A DNA stretch of 40,829 nt from Escherichia phage P483: the sequence record NC_028822.1; one strand, given 5' to 3'. Made by a program: the position numbers and the translations under genes. The notes below the pieces were generated by a model. It saw nothing but the letters and a program-made list of their open reading frames with translations. It was not told the DNA's origin and searched no databases. Shown here in pieces: positions 880-40,829 of the stretch (positions within the stretch are counted from its first letter, which is position 1; each line of letters opens with the position of its first letter).

Positions 880-2904
880 TTATTGGTTTTGAACTAAGAT
901 TCGCGTAGGGACTGAACGGTTGTCTTGGTCGTTACGGAAAGTTCGCCCGTTGTTAGAGATTGTAAAGGTCAACCAGCCGCCCATAGACGAGATATAGTAA
1001 GCCCCATTATCCCCAATCTGAACAGGGTTCCAGCGACCGTTGGTTTGAATCCAGATGGTTCTCCATCGGACATCCTGTGAGAGACCTACGGAAACACCGC
1101 CACCAGCAGAGCCTTTCCAGACCTCAGCCCACCCAGCGTTCTTGCGGACATAGCGACCATCGCCTTGGGCTTGTGTCAATCGACCATTCACTAGGTTGTT
1201 CGTCTCGCTCTTGTTGTAGGCATGTTCGCCAAGGCGTTTGTTTACCCAAGCGTCGATATAAGACCCATACTTCTTGATGTATAAGTTACCATCAGGCGGG
1301 ATATACCACCCCTTATTACTAGATAGCAGTCCATCAATCGTCATGGTCAGTGTGTGGTCATGACCCCCGTCTCCCTTAAGTTGGATGATACCCTCATGAA
1401 AGTTGTTGCTACCTTTCGATACCATGCCAATAGAGAATGCCGCCGGATAACCATTAGAGCGTCTACCATATTGTTTAATCATAGGGTAATACACGTTGCC
1501 ATCCTGATTTCCGGGGAGGCTTTGCGAGTAAGGGGCATTGTTATTCAACTGGCTTGCAAACCCTCCTGACCCAAAAGTTGACTCAGTGTAGAATCTCTCG
1601 TCAGCCCTAATATACTTAGAGACTCGAAGATACCCATCCATAGAGACGTTCTGGTAGAATCGAGAGTCATGGTGAGCGTGGAATCCCCCATAGAAGTCAT
1701 GACGACCGTGCCCATTGGAGCGACCATCAGGCCACGTAGAAGGGTCTGTATTTCCAAACACATAGAAGTCCATGCGTTTTGTACCAGCCTGAATCCACTG
1801 TTCCCATACGGTATCCTTAGCGCCCTGTCCACGCCACTGATTCCATACTAAATCAACTGGTTGTGTGTCATCGCCTCTAGCATCATTGTGGAGCGTTAAA
1901 ACACTAGAGCCTACCTTGCCTTTAAAGTAAACATCACTATCCTCAACCCTGTCAATGGCCTCTGCAAGTGCATTCATGCTGCCTAACTTGTCGGCCTCAG
2001 TCTTAGCACGGTCAGCTTCACTCTTAGAGCGGTTAGCCTCAGTGTTAGCACGGTCTGCATGTCCTTTAGCGGTCTCAACATGTGCAGCAGCCTTGGCAAC
2101 CTCAGCAGCAGCTTTAGTCACTTCTCCGGCAGCACGATTGGCCTCATCACGGGCACGATTGGCCTCAGAGTTGGAACGGTCAGCTTGCTTCTTGGCCTCA
2201 GCGACACTTGCGGTCATACTATCAGCATAACCTTTAGCTCGGTTGGCCTCAGAGTTGGAACGGTCAGCTTGCTTCTTGGACTCAACTGCTTGTTGCGTTG
2301 AGACACCTGCCTGTTGCGTTGAGCGGTCAGCTTCACGTTTAGCACGGTCAGCTTCATCACGTGAGCGGTTAGCTTCCTTGTTAGAACGGTTAGCATGTTC
2401 ATCAGCTTTGGTCACAGCGTTCCAAGCAGACGACTCGCGCTCTTTTACTTGCTTCAGTGGGACAGCATCATAGTCACCAGTAGCGAACGCTAGGTTCACA
2501 ATCTTACGACCACGGGCATCCAAGTGACCATCATTGTTGACACCAATGGTATCCGCAGTTAGGTCTCGTGCCTCTTCAGCTACGTGCAGCGTCTGAATCT
2601 GTGAGATGTTAAGGTCATACGCACGAAGGATTGAGCCATCAGCAAAGTCAACCAGACGGTCGGTTGCAGAAGTGAATCTACGAATCTCAATCATCTGATA
2701 ACCATCGGCAGCAGTCCACGAACGGGAGGTTGTGATTTGGGTCTTAGTGGTAAAGCGATAGTCCTGATTAAGAACCAACTCTTTACGGTCTTTCCCGATG
2801 AGTGTCACTTGGACGAACTTACGTGCTAAATACTCAAAGGTAATCGTGAAGTTCACGGCACCGTTCAGCGGGTAAGTACGTACAGTGGAAATTTTGTTAG
2901 CCAT
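880..2904 (-). CDS. 17: Tail fiber protein (T7 gp17-like) with an expanded repetitive coiled-coil shaft
   Basis: Start moved to internal ATG at 2904 (MANKISTVRTYPLNG..., SD AGGAGG upstream); N-terminal 150 aa and C-terminal tip resemble T7 gp17 as recalled; 674 aa versus 553 in T7. Confidence 0.9.
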   Translation of the reverse strand: MANKISTVRTYPLNGAVNFTITFEYLARKFVQVTLIGKDRKELVLNQDYRFTTKTQITTSRSWTAADGYQMIEIRRFTSATDRLVDFADGSILRAYDLNISQIQTLHVAEEARDLTADTIGVNNDGHLDARGRKIVNLAFATGDYDAVPLKQVKERESSAWNAVTKADEHANRSNKEANRSRDEADRAKREADRSTQQAGVSTQQAVESKKQADRSNSEANRAKGYADSMTASVAEAKKQADRSNSEANRARDEANRAAGEVTKAAAEVAKAAAHVETAKGHADRANTEANRSKSEADRAKTEADKLGSMNALAEAIDRVEDSDVYFKGKVGSSVLTLHNDARGDDTQPVDLVWNQWRGQGAKDTVWEQWIQAGTKRMDFYVFGNTDPSTWPDGRSNGHGRHDFYGGFHAHHDSRFYQNVSMDGYLRVSKYIRADERFYTESTFGSGGFASQLNNNAPYSQSLPGNQDGNVYYPMIKQYGRRSNGYPAAFSIGMVSKGSNNFHEGIIQLKGDGGHDHTLTMTIDGLLSSNKGWYIPPDGNLYIKKYGSYIDAWVNKRLGEHAYNKSETNNLVNGRLTQAQGDGRYVRKNAGWAEVWKGSAGGGVSVGLSQDVRWRTIWIQTNGRWNPVQIGDNGAYYISSMGGWLTFTISNNGRTFRNDQDNRSVPTRILVQNQ
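2161..2279 (-). repeat. Two perfect 35-bp direct repeats inside the tail-fiber shaft coding region
   Basis: ggcctcagagttggaacggtcagcttgcttcttgg at 2161-2195 and 2245-2279; encodes KKQADRSNSEANRA twice. Confidence 0.85.
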
Positions 2905-2953
2905 CTGTAGCCTCCTTTCGGTTAGGTATAATAGGAGGGAAGCTGTGAGAGCC

Positions 2954-2976
2954 TTCCCCAATAGTGAGTCGTATTG
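2954..2976 (-). promoter_or_regulatory. Phage RNAP promoter phi17
   Basis: Minus strand reads CAATACGACTCACTATTGGGGAA. Confidence 0.85.
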
Positions 2977-2977
2977 T

Positions 2978-5900
2978 TTACTTCTTGTCAGCCTTAATGT
3001 GAACACCGTTGGCCTCATAGAACTTAATGAGCATCTGTTGAGAGATTGGGTCGTTAGGAATCATCTCTCGGTGAGCATTCATTAAGCCAGTCATCATCTC
3101 ACGCTCGGTCGGTTTGTTAGGAGCCGTAAGGACACCATAAGCATTTCGACCAGTAGCTAGAGCAGCACCAGCGAAGCCAAGAGCAGGAACCTGTTCACCA
3201 ATAGCGCCCATAATGGAATCACCCATGTCACGAGAAGTCACCGCCTTATTGCGTTCACGCTTGTCATCACCTTTCGGTAGAATCGTAGAGCGAACCATAA
3301 GACCTTGGTCGTAACCAGCAGCACCCATAGCGAAGTTAGCGATACTCAGAGGCGACCCAAGGTGTGAACTTCGGGAGGCCGCTGCGTAGGCAATCATCTT
3401 CGGGTCGAGAGCTTTCTTCAAGTAATCCTTCTGTTGCTCTTTAGGAAGACCAGCAGCTTTCAAGTGAGCCTGTGCCACGTAGTAGGAACCGGCAAGACCA
3501 CCAGAGATAGCATAGGTCAGAGCCATGTCCATAGCGCGATGGTTCTTAAAGGCTTCGTTGCCAGAGCGGATAAACTTAGAGTTCATCGACTTGATGACAA
3601 ACGATTTAAACTGAAGGACTAACTTAGCGGTAGCACCAAACGCATGGGAATCCTGTAAGGAAACCTTATGAGGTCTGAGCATCGTTTCATCAGCAACCTT
3701 ATCAGCTAAACGCCATAAGTCCATAGCACGAGGGTCATTAGCCAGAGCCTTCTTATCCTTGAAGGTGAACTTACCATCTTCACCACGAGTCACGTTCTCC
3801 CGGATGAGAGACTGAATGCCTTCCCACTGTTCCTTAGAGATACTCGCCGACTTCAGCATGTCACCTTTAATCCACTTGTTGGCACCCTTACCAGTGATAG
3901 CATGAGTTACCACATCGCCCATAACACCCTGACGGGCCATGTCCAGAAGGTAGTTTGACGTACCATTGAGGAACTTGGTTAGAGGTGAGCGAGCAGCCAG
4001 TTCTTGAGTTGTGTGCTTAATGGTCCCAACAACCTTTGCTGCAACATCAGGTGTATCAGTTGACTCACGGAGTCGCTGAATGATGTCTTGACGAGTCGGT
4101 CGGATTAACTGGTCGAACTCTTTACCGAACACCATAGAGTGGAGTTCTTTGAGTTCCTTACCGGAGACTGGCTTGTTGCGGAACGCTAAGTCACGCAGTG
4201 CCGGAATGCCATGAAGCATCGCACGGATATTACCCTTCGCCAACATACCGGAGATTTCAGTTAGGTTCTGCAAGCCCATGTATGCGTTCTTCGTAAAGAA
4301 GGACATATCGGACAGAGCACGAACCATAGTGTCACCTACAGTATCCTGATTACGTCGAGCACGACCAGTGAGAATCTTAACGGTATCCTTAAGTGCTTCC
4401 ACTTCACCTTTCATTGTGCCTTTACCTTCAGACTTCTTATCAAGAGCCATGATAGCGTCCTTGAGTTCAGCAGTAGTCTTGCCTGTACCTCCCATGATAG
4501 CAATATCACCATCAACACGGCGGTCATATGCTGGCATCACATGCTTCATATCGAAGTCACGGAGGTCATTCACAGAGAACTGTTGTCCATTCGGTAGAGT
4601 GACTGGCATGTCAGAATCAAACAGGTTACGGGCTTCAAGGAATGAGTTGTTCTCAATCCCAACGAGACCCTCAATGTTATCGTCAATGACACTTGAAGAG
4701 TTGAACTCATCGGTCTTCGCAATACCATAAGCCTTGTCCATAGCGTACTTCTCAGCCATCTGACTAAGCATAGCCTCTTCGTCTACCTTTGGTTCCACCT
4801 TCTCGTCTGTGCCAAACTTCTGGCGCTCTGAAGGTTTAGCCGGAGCAGCTTGTGCACCTTTGGCAGCAGAGGCGGCTTCTTCAGCTTCGGCGGTGGCTCT
4901 GGTGATTCTGTCTTGGACCTTAGTAGCCTGTCCTTTCATGTATTCGAGACGCTCTGTGTTAACACGGACGTGAGACTTCTGGGTCTCAATCATCTGCTTC
5001 CGGCTCTCAATCTTAACAGGAATGGTTTTGCTATTAGGTTTAGCAGCTAGTTTTTCTTCCAACTCCTTCAGCTTAGCCTCATGCGAAGCCAGTCTGTCCT
5101 TGGAGTTCTGGAGTTTCCTTTCACGGTCCGCAACTCGCTTCTCAGCGTTGGTCAGGACGTCTTTTAGTTCTGCTACCTTATCACTTGCCTGTGTAGCTGC
5201 ATCGTCCAGTTTCATCTGGTAACTGGCTGTGTCGACAGACTCTTGGCTTCTGAGGAAGTTCTCAGTGTCAGCCGCAAGTTTGGCATCAGCTTCAGCTTTG
5301 GAGAAAACGTCACTGTTAACCTGTTTAAGGTATTCATCAACACGGGCCTTAACTTCAGGACGTGAATGATAGGATGTCATCCAGCTTGCAGCAATCGCTT
5401 CCTGTAAACCATCAGAACCCCCAAGAGCCTGTGAGTACAACTGCTTGGCTTCCCGTGAGTACACATGAGGAACGTAAGTCCCTTTGTGACGACTGTTAGG
5501 GAAGATAGAGTTGGCCTTGTTACCGAACATCGACGGGTTCTCCATCATCTCACGCTTGAGGTCAAAGTGTTCCTTCATGATGTCCATCACCTTACGTTCT
5601 GCCTTTGTCAAGTTGGCCTGAAGTTCAGGTCTCTCGATAGCCACAGCAGCACGACGATAGATTTCTTGACGGGCACCTTGAGCACCACTCTTGAACATAC
5701 CCACAGACCACTCAGGGTCAGCCATCGCTTCCTTCATTGCACCATAGAGGTCATTGTAGGTTCGCTGGTTGTTACTGTGTAGGCGCTCTTTGATGTCTGA
5801 GGCGGTAGCCCCAAACTTACCATGTGAGCCAGACTCCATACCTGTAGGTGAGCGCACTAAGTCCTTAGCTAGTCCACGGATTTCAGCGTGTTCAGAACGT

Positions 5901-36199: not shown

Positions 36200-36465
36200 G
36201 ATAGTGCCTCATTATGTGTGTGTTAGTGATTATCATTAAAGAGCACACGTTGTTACTTAATGTATGCCCTTGAGTTAATCGCTATCGGCGTTATCACTGT
36301 TTAAACGCTTGTGCGTTCACGTCATCCCCGTAGTTCTTGACTACCTGTCTCGCAGTAAGGGAATTACACGACCAAATTGTTAAAGAGCTTTAAGTGCAGG
36401 TTTGTTAGCACCGAGTCACTTTCAGTGTGTGACCTCACAAGAACGTTATGTAGTGCATGTGGTAC

Positions 36466-36613: not shown

Positions 36614-36643
36614 ATCTTACATCTTATCTTTACTGCTTGTCAA
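36614..36643 (-). promoter_or_regulatory. Sigma70-type early promoter (A2-like)
   Basis: Minus strand -35 TTGACA (36638-36643), 18-bp spacer, -10 TAAGAT (36614-36619). Confidence 0.55.
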
Positions 36644-36961: not shown

Positions 36962-36979
36962 TCTCTCTCTCTCTCTCTC
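36962..36979 (-). repeat. (TC)9 / (GA)9 dinucleotide microsatellite at the phiOL transcription start
   Basis: tctctctctctctctctc read directly; the transcript would begin GAGAGAGAGAGAGAGAGA. Confidence 0.9.
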
Positions 36980-36996
36980 AATAGTGAGTCATATTA
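36974..36996 (-). promoter_or_regulatory. Phage RNAP promoter phiOL
   Basis: Minus strand reads TAATATGACTCACTATTGAGAGA. Confidence 0.75.
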
Positions 36997-37135: not shown

Positions 37136-37210
37136 CATAAGGCACTGACTGAAGGTTAACATAAGGATAGGCATGGTCATAAGGTGATAACTCAAGGTGA
37201 TGACATAAGG
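37136..37210 (-). repeat. Four CCTTATG heptamer repeats between the predicted terminal repeat and phiOL (analogous to T7 CCTAAAG repeats)
   Basis: cataagg at 37136, 37160, 37178, 37204; three more at 37464, 37490, 37568 on the other side of the predicted end. Confidence 0.6.
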
Positions 37211-37412
37211 AGATACTCAATGGTCACTTACAGATAGGGACACAGAGACACTAAGTTATCCACAGAGTTACCAACAGTCTCACCTAAAGTTATCCACACA
37301 GCCTCTAACCTAGAGTTATCCACAGAGTTATCCATAGGTTATCCACAAGTTATCCACAAGTTATCTACAGGGTTACCCACAGGGGGGAAACCACTATGTA
37401 TGAACTATGAGA
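37190..37412 (-). repeat. Predicted terminal direct repeat with the left physical genome end at about 37412 (boundaries approximate)
   Basis: Minus strand from 37412 reads TCTCATAGTTCATACATAGTGG...CCCCCC, like the T3/T7 left end (TCTCA...) as recalled; GTGTCTCTGTGTCCCTATCTGT (37225-37250) matches the end of the T7 terminal repeat. Confidence 0.4.
37246..37381 (+). repeat. Array of eight DnaA-box-like 9-mers (five exact TTATCCACA) in the predicted terminal-repeat region
   Basis: TTATCCACA at 37246, 37290, 37316, 37339, 37350; TTATCCATA at 37328; TTATCTACA at 37361; TTACCCACA at 37373; all same orientation. Confidence 0.8.
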
Positions 37413-37667
37413 TACCCACTCAGATTTTTCTGTAGGATTCTTAAAGGGGTACATCAAGTCTCTCATAAGGTTATCCTTGGAGTGGCTATCATAAGGTGCT
37501 ACGTAGGGAGCATAGCGGTGAGACTACGTGAGAGACCCTAAGAGACCTTGTAGACCATTAAGGAATACATAAGGCTACCTCTTAGAGTTGACTTCTTACA
37601 GTGATTATAGGGAAGATGTATATCGACCATAATCACTAAGAGCGCGCACTAAGCGCCAATGAGCAGT

Positions 37668-37823
37668 CTAAGGAACACAAGTGAGTAGAGAACAAAGCAG
37701 AGTCTCCAGTTCACCGATGTGTTCAGCACTAGATGCGAGACCAATGGAAGCAGCAAGTACAACGAGAAATTTATAGGTCACTCGATGCGTTGCCAGTGTC
37801 TTGAGCACGGTTAGTAAGCGCAT
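37668..37823 (-). CDS. 19.5: Small protein (T7 gp19.5-like)
   Basis: 51 codons, MRLLTVLKTLATHRVTYKFLVVLAASIGLASSAEHIGELETLLCSLLTCVP; resembles T7 gp19.5 (HRVTYRFLVVL) as recalled; SD AAGGAGGA. Confidence 0.7.
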   Translation of the reverse strand: MRLLTVLKTLATHRVTYKFLVVLAASIGLASSAEHIGELETLLCSLLTCVP

Positions 37824-37981: not shown

Positions 37982-38004
37982 CTTCCCAATAGTGAGTCGT
38001 ATTA
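37982..38004 (-). promoter_or_regulatory. Phage RNAP promoter phiOR
   Basis: Minus strand reads TAATACGACTCACTATTGGGAAG, downstream of the terminase gene. Confidence 0.85.
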
Positions 38005-38091: not shown

Positions 38092-39849
38092 TTACCACTC
38101 AATGAAGCAGCTAGAATCTCCATCGTCCTCGTAGTAGATGTCCACGCCACCAACATCGTAGCTATGGATAGCATCACCACCAACGGTCTGTTTCTCCATG
38201 TGGTGTTCAAGGAACTCAAGGGTCATCTCTTCTTCACCTACACGGCTGTCCACAAGCATCCCTTCACGCAGGAACTCGATACCCAATGCGATAGCATCAA
38301 GTCGGTCATCGTGTGCCACAGCGCCTCGCTCACGGGTCATACGGGTCATCTGATAGAACGCACTGTAGCGAACATCATGTTTCCCATCAAGGTCACGAGC
38401 AGTCTGGTAGTCCTCACGGATAACCTCATCACGAATGACCAGCTTGTGCGCACCCATCAACGGTTCGATAGTATCGCAGATTCGCATCTCCTTCATGCCT
38501 TTAGCACGGATTTCCTCTAAGGCACACTTGTGATGCTTCAGGAGAATCGGAGAGAAAATCTTACCGAACATACCGTCACCGAAGTTGGACTCGTGGACTA
38601 CTGTCTGTACATTCCACTGCTTGGCCTTCTTAGCGAGCTTCTCTAGGGTAGCATCATCGTAACCACCACGGAACCCACCGACTTCCATCAAGTAGATATA
38701 ACCGTTAAGTGAGTAGAGGACTGCGTACCCGGTCTCATCCTTACCACGACCACTTGGGTCAATGACCAGAATCTTAGACTGATACTCAGCGGTACGAGAA
38801 GAGCACGTATGGAACGCATGGATGTCATCACCCTTCAGACCAACGTTAGGGAGTTCCTCATTGCGGTTCTGACGGTTCGGCAACCACTGGTAAGACAATG
38901 GGGCACGTTCAGGGTCCACAGCGCACACGATAGCGTCACGGAGTCGTAGCGGGTACTTCTCGGCATCACTAAGGTTCGGGTTAAGCATGAACTGAAGCGT
39001 GTAGCCAGCTTTGCCATATTCGAGTTCACGTTCACGGAGGTCATCCATGTCGAATCGAATAGGGTCAGTAGGTTGACCACGAAGTAACTCGAAGCCTTCA
39101 TCGTATTCAGCCTTAAGCATCGGAGCCAAGCGGTCCCCATAGTAGAGAGCCTCAGCATCATTACGTGGATACTGTGCAGGCCAGATTACCGTACTGTACC
39201 CTTTGTTATCCTCAAGTTCCTTGTAGAGCGTCATCTCGGTTTGAGGTGTGCCAAGGTAGATAACACGAGAGGTAGGCAGCGGCTTAAGTAATGCAGCGAA
39301 CTCAGTTACCAACGTCCAGAGCTTCTCACGAGCAGAACTCGTAGAGCTATTACCGGGAACCTCAACGTCATCTGCGATAATAATGTCAGCACGGCTACCA
39401 GTTAACTGACCAGTAATACCTACAGACTTCACAGAGGGTGAGTGGTCGGGTTTCGCCAAGCCAACGTCAAAGCTAATAACAGAGTCACGCTGTCCCGGTC
39501 GAGGTTTCAACTCAGAGAGGAACGGAAGGAGGTCGATGATGTTCTTAATGAAGATGGAGTTAGCGTCCGCACGTTCCTTAGAGGCAGACACGATGAGAAC
39601 CTTAAGTTGAGGGTCACGCCATAAGACCCACACGACGAACGCACAGGTGATAAAGGACTTGCCGATACCACGGAACGCCTGAAGGATAAACTTCTTGTGG
39701 TCGCCGTTAGCGAGTGTACGTGCCATATCAATCTGACACTTGGTTGGTTTAGGTAAGTTCAGAGCCTTCCATAAGACGAACAGGAAGGCCACGAAGTCAC
39801 CCTTAAGTTGCGCCACGATGAGCGCATTCTTGTTTGCTTGAGTAGACAT
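38092..39849 (-). CDS. 19: Terminase large subunit / DNA maturase B (T7 gp19-like)
   Basis: 585 aa (T7 gp19 is 586 aa); Walker-type ATPase and nuclease regions; SD TAGGAGG. Confidence 0.95.
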
Positions 39850-39864
39850 TGTGGCCTCCTATTG

Positions 39865-40422
39865 TTACTCGGCAGGTTTCTCTAAGGCAGCAATGCGCTT
39901 CTCAAGAGCCTTGATAGTGTCGGTCTTAGATACAGCCCCGTCGATGTTACTAGGTTGGAACATAACGGAAACGCTCTTCCCTTCGCTATCCACGAACTGT
40001 GTACCAAATTCACTATCAGACGCAGAAAGCGTTGCACTAACTAAGGAAGCCATACCACCTTCAGGTTCAGGGTCAGCACCAGTCCACTCTTTGTATACGT
40101 CGATTCGAACCATACCGAGTCGCTCAGTGCTTTGCTCATTCAGGAACACCGTCATGAACCCGCTACCCGGTTTAGACTCGACGGAGCCACCCCAAGTGGA
40201 CATAAGGGTCTCGAACGTAGCGTGTTGCTCAGTGGTGCCATCACTCAGTTGGATAACGTATTCAACCTTAGAGTAGCCCTCAACCTTAACCATCTCCGAA
40301 GCTGGGATGTCGATACGCCCAACACGAAGACCAATATTGTTGCGGTCGTACACATCACGACTGTCTGGTGAGCGACCATTGATGGTCCATAGTGTGCGGG
40401 TTCTTGAGTTTGTAGTAGCCAT
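39865..40422 (-). CDS. Hypothetical late protein inserted between Rz/Rz1 and terminase large subunit (no T7/T3 counterpart recognised)
   Basis: 185 aa ORF, ATG 40422 preceded by SD GAAGGAGAAG at optimal spacing; starts 3 nt after the Rz stop and ends 16 nt before the gene 19 start; no TM segment, no Cys, C-terminal amphipathic helix. Confidence 0.75.
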   Translation of the reverse strand: MATTNSRTRTLWTINGRSPDSRDVYDRNNIGLRVGRIDIPASEMVKVEGYSKVEYVIQLSDGTTEQHATFETLMSTWGGSVESKPGSGFMTVFLNEQSTERLGMVRIDVYKEWTGADPEPEGGMASLVSATLSASDSEFGTQFVDSEGKSVSVMFQPSNIDGAVSKTDTIKALEKRIAALEKPAE

Positions 40423-40424
40423 AA

Positions 40425-40829
40425 TTACTTCTCCTTCTTAGCTTGCATTTCAGTTATTGTATTTTGGAGCGCCTTAATCCACGCATCCCCTCTTTGAGTT
40501 ACTCCGATAAGACGCTTACTAAACTCTTCGTCAAGTTCGGCTCGACCATCAACGAGGCATCCACCATTAGCTTGGAGTTCTCGTGTGGTGGCTGATAGTT
40601 TGACGCGCAAGCGCTTACCATCGTTACGCAAATCATTAATGACCCTATCAGTGCTGCCCTCCAGCGCCGCAAGGTCTTCTTGGTATTGTCGTGAGATTTC
40701 GTTGATAGCAGCTTGTTTATCCTCAGTCGCCTTAACTTTCTTAACGTACTCATTGTGCACCTCCTGTTCCCATTTAGTGTTAGCTTTGTCATAGCCGTGG
40801 TTATACGCAAGGGTAACACCCAAGGCAAA
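40425..40829 (-). CDS. 18.5: i-spanin Rz (T7 gp18.5-like), 3' part; the 5' end lies beyond the window end (equivalent to 1..265)
   Basis: Continuous with the copy at the window start; resembles T7 gp18.5 as recalled. Confidence 0.8.
   Translation of the reverse strand, partial: FALGVTLAYNHGYDKANTKWEQEVHNEYVKKVKATEDKQAAINEISRQYQEDLAALEGSTDRVINDLRNDGKRLRVKLSATTRELQANGGCLVDGRAELDEEFSKRLIGVTQRGDAWIKALQNTITEMQAKKEK
40499..40753 (-). CDS. 18.7: o-spanin Rz1 (T7 gp18.7-like), embedded in Rz in the +1 frame
   Basis: ATG 40753 with SD GGAGGTG; MSTLRKLRRLRINK...LIGSLMICVTMVSACAS (lipoprotein signal and Cys) ...SLMVEPNLT resembles T7 gp18.7 as recalled. Confidence 0.8.
   Translation of the reverse strand: MSTLRKLRRLRINKLLSTKSHDNTKKTLRRWRAALIGSLMICVTMVSACASNYQPPHENSKLMVDASLMVEPNLTKSLVSVLSE
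40604..40829. repeat. 226-bp exact duplication of window positions 1-226 (circular-permutation overlap, not a biological repeat)
   Basis: Direct comparison of window start and end. Confidence 0.95.

Follow-up and report, generated by a model that had tools for sequence, protein, structure and literature searches.

Positions 37236 to 37412 of the genome record of Escherichia phage P483 (NC_028822.1), read on the minus strand, very probably represent a terminal repeat of the T7 type, and homology to other phages of this group indicates that the virion DNA would be linear and carry a short exact direct repeat. The complete record of 40,829 nucleotides is referred to here as the window. The 177-bp segment occurs once in the window, as had been expected in a previous sequence-only reading of this DNA, because assemblers merge the two terminal copies; the form found is the same as that of a concatemer junction. 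The mature left end is predicted to start at 37412, exactly where the minus-strand sequence TCTCATAGTT... / TCTCATAGTTCATACATAGTGGTTTCCCCCC begins, and the mature right end to finish at 37236, or at 37235 if an extra A in the record of phage A7 is real. The repeat and the overlapping ends of the window are located as follows:

37236 to 37412, minus strand: predicted direct terminal repeat of 177 bp, present as a single collapsed copy; its boundaries align with those of T7, T3, BA14, A7, Berlin, and Sarma103
1 to 226, strand not given: assembly overlap, copy 1, identical to 40604 to 40829, in gene 18.5/Rz; not a physical repeat
40604 to 40829, strand not given: assembly overlap, copy 2, with exact 226-bp identity

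The assembly behind the window, which is that of a T7-group (Berlinvirus) phage, closes as a circle and was opened at an arbitrary point. All of its long ORFs are on the minus strand, which has a T7-like gene order and encodes a T7-type terminase, Rz, and a single-subunit RNA polymerase. A megablast comparison revealed 90 to 97% identity and collinearity with the Berlinvirus-type T7-group phages PYPS50, BA14, FE44, PhiV-1, and Shigella phage A7 (vB_ShiP-A7, MK685668), and T7-type promoters (TAATACGACTCACTATTGGGAGA and variants) were matched 11 times in the window, on the minus strand only, with 0 matches expected by chance. Both copies of the 226-bp overlap map to positions 2790 to 3015 of A7, inside gene 18.5/Rz, with collinear sequence on either side, and the corresponding Rz Pfam match covers positions 40425 to 40823 of the window. 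Since these identical end bases lie within a gene, the assembly is circularly permuted, as the sequence-only reading had proposed, and the overlap is an artefact of assembly. Assemblers choose an arbitrary first base for genomes of this kind (PMC5557969). Once the overlap is removed, 40,603 bp of unique sequence remain, and a second copy of the 177-bp repeat brings the computed length of the mature genome to 40,780 bp. The previous estimate of about 40.8 kb agrees with this value, but only when the overlap is taken out before the second repeat copy is added. The genome should consequently be reopened at 37412 in reverse-complemented form, with the second copy restored.

The boundaries of the repeat were derived from a comparison with relatives. 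Exact terminal repeats were computed from both ends of the reference records of T7, T3, BA14, A7, and Berlin, whereas those of Yep-phi and Sarma103 were taken as annotated:

T7: 160 bp, computed
T3: 231 bp, computed
BA14 (EU734171): 194 bp, computed
A7: 177 bp, computed
Berlin: 226 bp, computed
Yep-phi: 222 bp, annotated
Sarma103: 204 bp, annotated

In all references compared, the left boundary reads ...AAAAATCTGAGTG(G/A)(G/C)TA followed by TCTCA(T/C)AG..., and the right boundary reads ...TGTGTCCCT followed by ATCTGT.... The boundary contexts ...AAAAATCTGAGTGGGTA followed by TCTCATAG and ...TGTGTCCCT followed by ATCTGT are conserved in T7, T3, BA14, A7, Berlin, Sarma103, and 13 metagenomic junctions, each spanned by a contig of the viral collection. 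In the window, the left-end consensus TCTCAYAG..., preceded by ...AAAAATCTGAGTGRSTA, is found exactly at 37412/37413, with at least 17 nt on each side identical to BA14, A7, and T3, and with 33 nt upstream of the left cut identical to BA14. The previously noted resemblance of the minus strand from 37412 downward to the left end of T3 and T7 is confirmed by this alignment, in which position 37412 matches base for base the first base of the T7, T3, BA14, A7, and Sarma103 genomes. The right-boundary consensus, ...YTGTSYCYT and then ATCTGT, appears as CTCTGTGTCCCT followed by ATCTGTAAG at 37247 to 37227, is identical across the boundary to T7, T3, and BA14, and places 37236 opposite the last base of the repeats of these three phages. 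The inner motif GTGTCTCTGTGTCCCTATCTGT noted in the sequence-only reading is indeed present on the minus strand, at 37251 to 37230, and the coordinates assigned to it then (37225 to 37250) were off by 1 to 5 nt. Similarly, the proposal of a genome start at about 37412 followed by a terminal repeat holds, but the length of 190 to 230 bp does not: boundary alignment and the A7 repeat both give 177 bp, and the part of the earlier interval from 37190 to 37235 is already unique left-end DNA.

For A7, end fragments obtained with EcoRI and PstI were subjected to run-off sequencing, which fixed the ends and gave repeats of 177 bp (PMC8427288). When the A7 record is reverse-complemented, its start corresponds to window position 37412 and its end to 37235. 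These ends, together with the boundary alignments, map onto 37412 and 37235/6 and therefore lead to the predicted repeat at 37236 to 37412. The right boundary is uncertain by 1 nt, and the repeat would measure 178 bp if the extra terminal A of the A7 record is real; this base is possibly a non-templated addition arising in run-off sequencing.

A further conserved element adjoins the left cut:

37413 to 37452, minus strand: conserved block GTACCCCTTTAAGAATCCTACAGAAAAATCTGAGTGGGTA immediately upstream of the left cut, the last unique right-end sequence; 100% identical in the nearest relative, P151, and in the Logan contig L172

The core of this block, ...AAAAATCTGAGTGGGTA, is common to T3, BA14, and A7 and nearly so to T7, and a search of the viral collection with this pattern yielded 33 T7-group contigs. 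According to the comparison, only some 30 nt at each edge of a T7-type repeat and the immediate flanks are constrained, and the interior is free to vary. Contigs encoding an identical SAM-lyase were also inspected for breaks at the predicted ends: none of the eight terminates there, two span the junction, and six start at unrelated points. A search of the assembly index for the exact terminase, RNA polymerase, and 185-aa proteins of the window retrieved no record.

Other accounts of the ends fit these observations poorly. It is very unlikely that the repeat measures 190 to 230 bp, with the same outer end and an inner boundary near 37190. Other Berlinvirus repeats do have lengths of 194 to 226 bp; however, the inner boundary motif ...TGTGTCCCT followed by ATCTGT is located at 37236/37235, exactly as in T7, T3, and BA14, the repeat of the same type in A7 was measured at 177 bp, and differences in length between phages arise in the variable interior rather than from a shifted boundary. 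Headful (pac) packaging, in which there would be no fixed ends and the conserved motifs would be relics, has in its favor only that the assembly closes as a circle, and it is extremely improbable given that fixed ends and exact repeats are found in all characterized phages of the group and that the terminase and junction sequences are 93 to 100% identical to those of fixed-end phages. An automatic caller of direct terminal repeats would instead report the exact 226-bp direct repeat at the contig termini, the length of which is near that of real repeats of the genus (226 bp in Berlin). That this is the real terminal repeat of the phage is scarcely conceivable, since both copies fall midway within the Rz/18.5 gene, between collinear flanks, no T7-group genome has ends inside this gene, and the conserved end motifs are at 37236 to 37412 instead; the location inside the Rz gene rules it out as a physical repeat. 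Automatic tools would accordingly call the wrong repeat in this record, the true ends, 177 bp apart, being 3.4 kb away from the contig end. The T7-type short exact repeat at 37236 to 37412 is of a thoroughly known kind and is ordinary for the family, and the present phage is closest to A7 in this respect.

The elements flanking the repeat are arranged as expected for a T7-type junction. On the gene strand, the terminase large subunit gene (39849 to 38092) is followed by a phiOR-like promoter (38004 to 37982), a 51-aa ORF (37823 to 37668), three CCTTATG heptamers, the 40-nt conserved block, the left cut, the repeat, the right cut, ATCTGTA, four CCTTATG heptamers, a phiOL-like promoter (36996 to 36974), a host-type promoter (36643 to 36614), and then the SAM-lyase gene. 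The individual features are the following:

37982 to 38004, minus strand: phage RNA polymerase promoter TAATACGACTCACTATTGGGAAG, phiOR equivalent, 570 bp upstream of the repeat (promoter match)
37668 to 37823, minus strand: 51-aa ORF, gene 19.5 equivalent, last gene before the right end; position as that of BA14 gp19.5, with a 51-residue gene likewise in L172
37464 to 37574, minus strand: three CCTTATG heptamers in right-end unique DNA, corresponding to the right-side CCTAAAG array of T7
37229 to 37235, minus strand: ATCTGTA directly after the repeat, counterpart of the T7 class II pause signal ATCTGTT by comparison with T7, T3, and Berlinvirus
37136 to 37210, minus strand: four CCTTATG heptamers in left-end unique DNA, corresponding to the left-side CCTAAAG array of T7
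36974 to 36996, minus strand: phage promoter TAATATGACTCACTATTGAGAGA, phiOL equivalent, whose start is 417 nt away from the predicted left end (promoter match)

T7, T3, and BA14 each have a phiOR promoter at the corresponding position, and by analogy the phiOR-like promoter of the window is predicted to direct transcription across the junction. The phiOL promoter is found at position 405 in T7, 366 to 388 in T3, and 353 to 375 in BA14. A (GA)9 run on the gene strand at 36962 to 36979 begins in the region where transcription from the phiOL-like promoter would start (CACTATTGAGAGAGAGAGAGAGAGAAAC); this run is longer in the related contig L176 and looks like a length-variable microsatellite. In the window, 15 copies of the heptamer CCTTATG were counted, compared with 3.6 expected. 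Seven of these, all on the gene strand, are located within 439 bp around the repeat, where 0.04 would be expected (Poisson P of about 3e-14), and their 4 + 3 distribution bears out the earlier statement that such heptamers lie on both sides of the region. The comparison made then with CCTAAAG arrays around the T7 repeat was correct as well: T7 has eight copies at 175 to 332, just inside the left repeat, and further copies at 39671 and 39700, just before the right repeat. The host-type promoter TTGACA-18-TAAGAT at 36643 to 36614 is strong; in the region around the repeat, four sigma-70 promoters were predicted against 4.0 expected, which is not above chance, and a scan of this region for intrinsic terminators retrieved none. 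No Rfam family matched between 36200 and 38100.

The motif that follows the repeat is ATCTGTT in the T7 and T3 clades and ATCTGTA in all genomes of the Berlinvirus clade examined, and in the BA14 record CTATCTGT bears the annotation "concatemeric junction". In T7, the concatemer junction contains the class II RNA polymerase pause/termination signal ATCTGTT (bioRxiv 10.1101/2021.01.11.426313; 10.64898/2026.02.12.705533), and any base change in it has been reported to abolish termination by the T7 polymerase (bioRxiv 10.1101/2021.01.11.426313). The complex of polymerase and lysozyme pauses at the junction and engages gp18/gp19 (PMC3276506). That the window has ATCTGTA and not the strict signal counts against the reading; pausing there by the polymerase of the present phage itself is plausible. 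Packaging may then be pictured as in T7 and T3: genomes would join head to tail through the repeat, and the phage RNA polymerase, starting from the phiOR-like promoter, would run through the repeat and, one base further on, encounter the pause-type signal ATCTGT(A). Two sequence-specific cuts by terminase (gp18/gp19) would follow, before TCTCATAG at 37412 and after ...GTGTCCCT at 37236. The repeat would be duplicated by extension from staggered nicks, and each packaged chromosome would therefore have a copy at both ends.

Unusually, the interior of the repeat contains a dense array of sites resembling those bound by the host initiator DnaA:

37256 to 37381, plus strand: array of nine DnaA-box-like 9-mers, TTATCCACA on this strand; five exact, three with one mismatch, and one with two mismatches

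All nine boxes have the same orientation and read TGTGGATAA on the gene strand. Their start-to-start spacing is 12, 11, 11, 11, 12, 26, 22, and 12 bp, so that six consecutive boxes are in an 11- to 12-bp register that is predicted to permit DnaA oligomerization. The consensus 9-mers TTATNCACA / TTATCCACA have five exact copies in the 40.8-kb window, all of them inside 37256 to 37381, and eight sites with at most one mismatch fall within these 126 bp, compared with 0.03 expected. The repeat also shares the 11-mer CTGTGGATAAC with box R1 and its flanks, and the 14-mer AGAGTTATCCACAG with box R4 and its flanks, of E. coli K-12 oriC. Judging by these consensus sites, the array is likely to bind DnaA in vitro. 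Neither a 13-mer-like AT-rich unwinding element nor GATC was found in the 31 nt that separate the array from the end of the genome (TCTCATAGTTCATACATAGTGGTTTCCCCCC); without an adjacent unwinding element, the array is not an origin by the usual definition and is therefore not to be filed as one.

This type of interior is common to only a handful of T7-group phages. The repeats that were found to contain such boxes are the following:

A7: four exact boxes, eight with at most one mismatch
nasanit: five exact boxes, six with at most one mismatch
NJ2: three exact boxes, six with at most one mismatch
phiEap-1 (genus Eapunavirus): five exact boxes, five with at most one mismatch; a repeat of 195 bp at each end of the record, and 72% identity elsewhere
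L172 (Logan contig, 95% identical to the window): three exact boxes
L184 (same sequence as L206; diverged metagenomic T7-type junction): three exact boxes, four with at most one mismatch

With one mismatch allowed, DnaA-box sites were absent from 32 of the 33 T7-group junctions of the viral collection. None was found in the repeats of T7, T3, BA14, Berlin, and P151, and that of Sarma103 has a single one-mismatch match. As far as the left cut, P151 and the window agree at 99 to 100% identity, and immediately beyond the right boundary at 96%, but identity across the interior is only 41%. Among contigs encoding the exact SAM-lyase of the window, L175 has a 199-bp cassette of the BA14 type and L172 a 178-bp cassette of the DnaA-box type; L175 also has two HNH-endonuclease-like genes between the terminase and the junction. 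The unrelated interior of P151 in spite of its matching flanks, and the BA14-type interior of L175, therefore indicate that the interior behaves as an exchangeable cassette between conserved edges, among phages with 96 to 100% identical flanks.

Similar arrays are not restricted to this phage group. When the viral and metagenome collections were scanned loosely for a box with the right boundary after it, most matches were bacterial or due to chance, and L184 was the only real T7-type junction among the matches listed. In a paired-box scan of viral contigs, at least 30 contigs with four or more exact boxes were found among the 120 matches listed. A microvirus, L311 (OQ686952.1, 4204 to 4290; locus 251 to 340), matches the repeat interior with six same-strand TGTGGATAA boxes and opposite-strand copies, and its box region is located just downstream of the replication-initiator gene, in sequence that is intergenic or annotated as a hypothetical protein. 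The uncultivated viral contigs L079 (reverse, 2160 to 2330), L081 (60 to 185), and L168 (1365 to 1610) have 6 to 11 exact TGTGGATAA(C) boxes on one strand, after which come a G-run and, next to it, an AT-rich promoter-like region; the array of L081 is about 70 bp from the contig end. These three arrays possibly belong to the genome ends or early regions of other phage groups. As dense same-strand arrays are common in unrelated viral contigs and are present in a microvirus, the use of DnaA boxes by phages is not new in general. The record of Enterobacter phage vB_SEqdws-315 (OK663600.1) appears to have been opened inside the DnaA-box repeat, its start corresponding to window position 37334 downward and its end reaching about 37360. 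That these ends fall inside the tandem boxes suggests that the assembler broke within them and that the deposited ends are not the physical ones.

It is possible, although doubtful, that in a minority of T7-group phages, namely the present one and those listed above with boxes, an oriC-like array of high-affinity DnaA boxes has taken the place of the repeat interior, forming a selected, exchangeable cassette that would coat both ends of every infecting and progeny chromosome with an oligomer of host DnaA; the alternative is an accidental repeat unit. If it were selected, possible roles of the cassette would be titration of DnaA, a barrier to transcription or exonucleases at the chromosome ends, or help in processing the junction. 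A related account, to which a similarly cautious, less than even degree of belief is assigned, holds that the region is mainly a host-DnaA-dependent element, origin-like or DnaA-titrating, with a secondary likeness to T7 ends, or, in a moderate form, that the terminal repeat is genuine and DnaA binding gives its interior an additional function under selection. The nine boxes in one orientation, five of them exact consensus and six in an 11- to 12-bp register, argue for it, as do the identity of boxes to oriC R1 and R4 including flanks, the recurrence of similar arrays in unrelated phage contigs and a microvirus, and the persistence of boxes in the diverged repeats of phiEap-1 (five exact), NJ2 (three exact and three near-exact), and L184 (three exact and one near-exact). 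The strong form conflicts with the conserved end motifs. The moderate form is opposed by the conservation pattern: among four close relatives, box columns are no better conserved than spacer columns (14 of 72 compared with 9 of 43 variable), and no purifying selection on the boxes is seen in this comparison, in which the tandem register is ambiguous. Boxes are also missing from 32 of the 33 other T7-group junctions and from P151, the flanks of which are 96 to 100% identical, and are therefore dispensable in the family; furthermore, the array has no 13-mer AT-rich unwinding element beside it, and T7-group replication is not known to require DnaA. A search of open-access texts for a link between DnaA boxes and T7-like terminal repeats retrieved nothing relevant, and no paper describing such boxes in T7-group repeats was found, which is weak evidence of absence. 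A T7-type terminal repeat remains the preferred reading of the segment as a whole, and its DnaA-box cassette offers an experimentally accessible handle on the role of internal repeats in T7-family terminal repetitions.

Differences in gene content from A7 were also observed. An insertion of about 570 bp is located at 39832 to 40430, between Rz (18.5) and the terminase large subunit gene (19). It contains an ORF on the minus strand (39865 to 40422) for a 185-aa protein that has no Pfam match and matches PHROG 20446, of unknown function, over its full length (E = 5e-129). An ocr-like anti-restriction gene is missing from the window at 36242 to 36267, where only about 26 bp correspond to positions 38611 to 39054 of the A7 record; upstream of the SAM-lyase gene, such a gene is present in A7 (38640 to 38984) and in L172 (2585 to 2929, PF08684).

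The ends of the present phage may be compared with known systems. The array resembles E. coli oriC, whose DnaA-box arrays have an 11-bp register, in that its boxes are identical to R1 and R4 including flanking bases, have one orientation, and are separated from their neighbors by gaps of 2 to 3 bp; it differs from oriC in the absence of an AT-rich 13-mer unwinding element and of GATC sites, and in that these putative DnaA sites are at the chromosome end of a phage with its own replication machinery. With T7, the window shares the first 8 to 10 nt almost identically (TCTCACAG in T7, TCTCATAG in the window), a C-run at about 25 to 31, the identical inner boundary GTGTCCCT followed by ATCTGT, heptamer arrays on both flanks, phiOR upstream of the repeat, and phiOL downstream. 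The differences are ATCTGTA in place of ATCTGTT, CCTTATG in place of CCTAAAG, and an unrelated interior, that of T7 being without DnaA-type boxes. BA14 belongs to the same genus and agrees with the window at every position over 33 nt ahead of the left cut, over the initial 16 nt of the repeat, and at the right boundary including ATCTGTA, and the flanks of P151 are 96 to 100% identical to those of the window. However, both phages have another interior cassette (41% identity, which amounts to unalignable sequence), with units of the CTTATG/CTTAATG type and no DnaA boxes. The closest system is that of A7, of the same genus. Its record has one extra terminal A compared with T7 and BA14, the order and number of its boxes differ slightly, it has the ocr-like gene, absent from the window, close to its left end, and it is without the insertion of about 570 bp between Rz and terminase. 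Its repeat is 92% identical to that of the window over 98% of the length; both begin with TCTCATAGTT, share the inner motif, and have an interior of the DnaA-box type.
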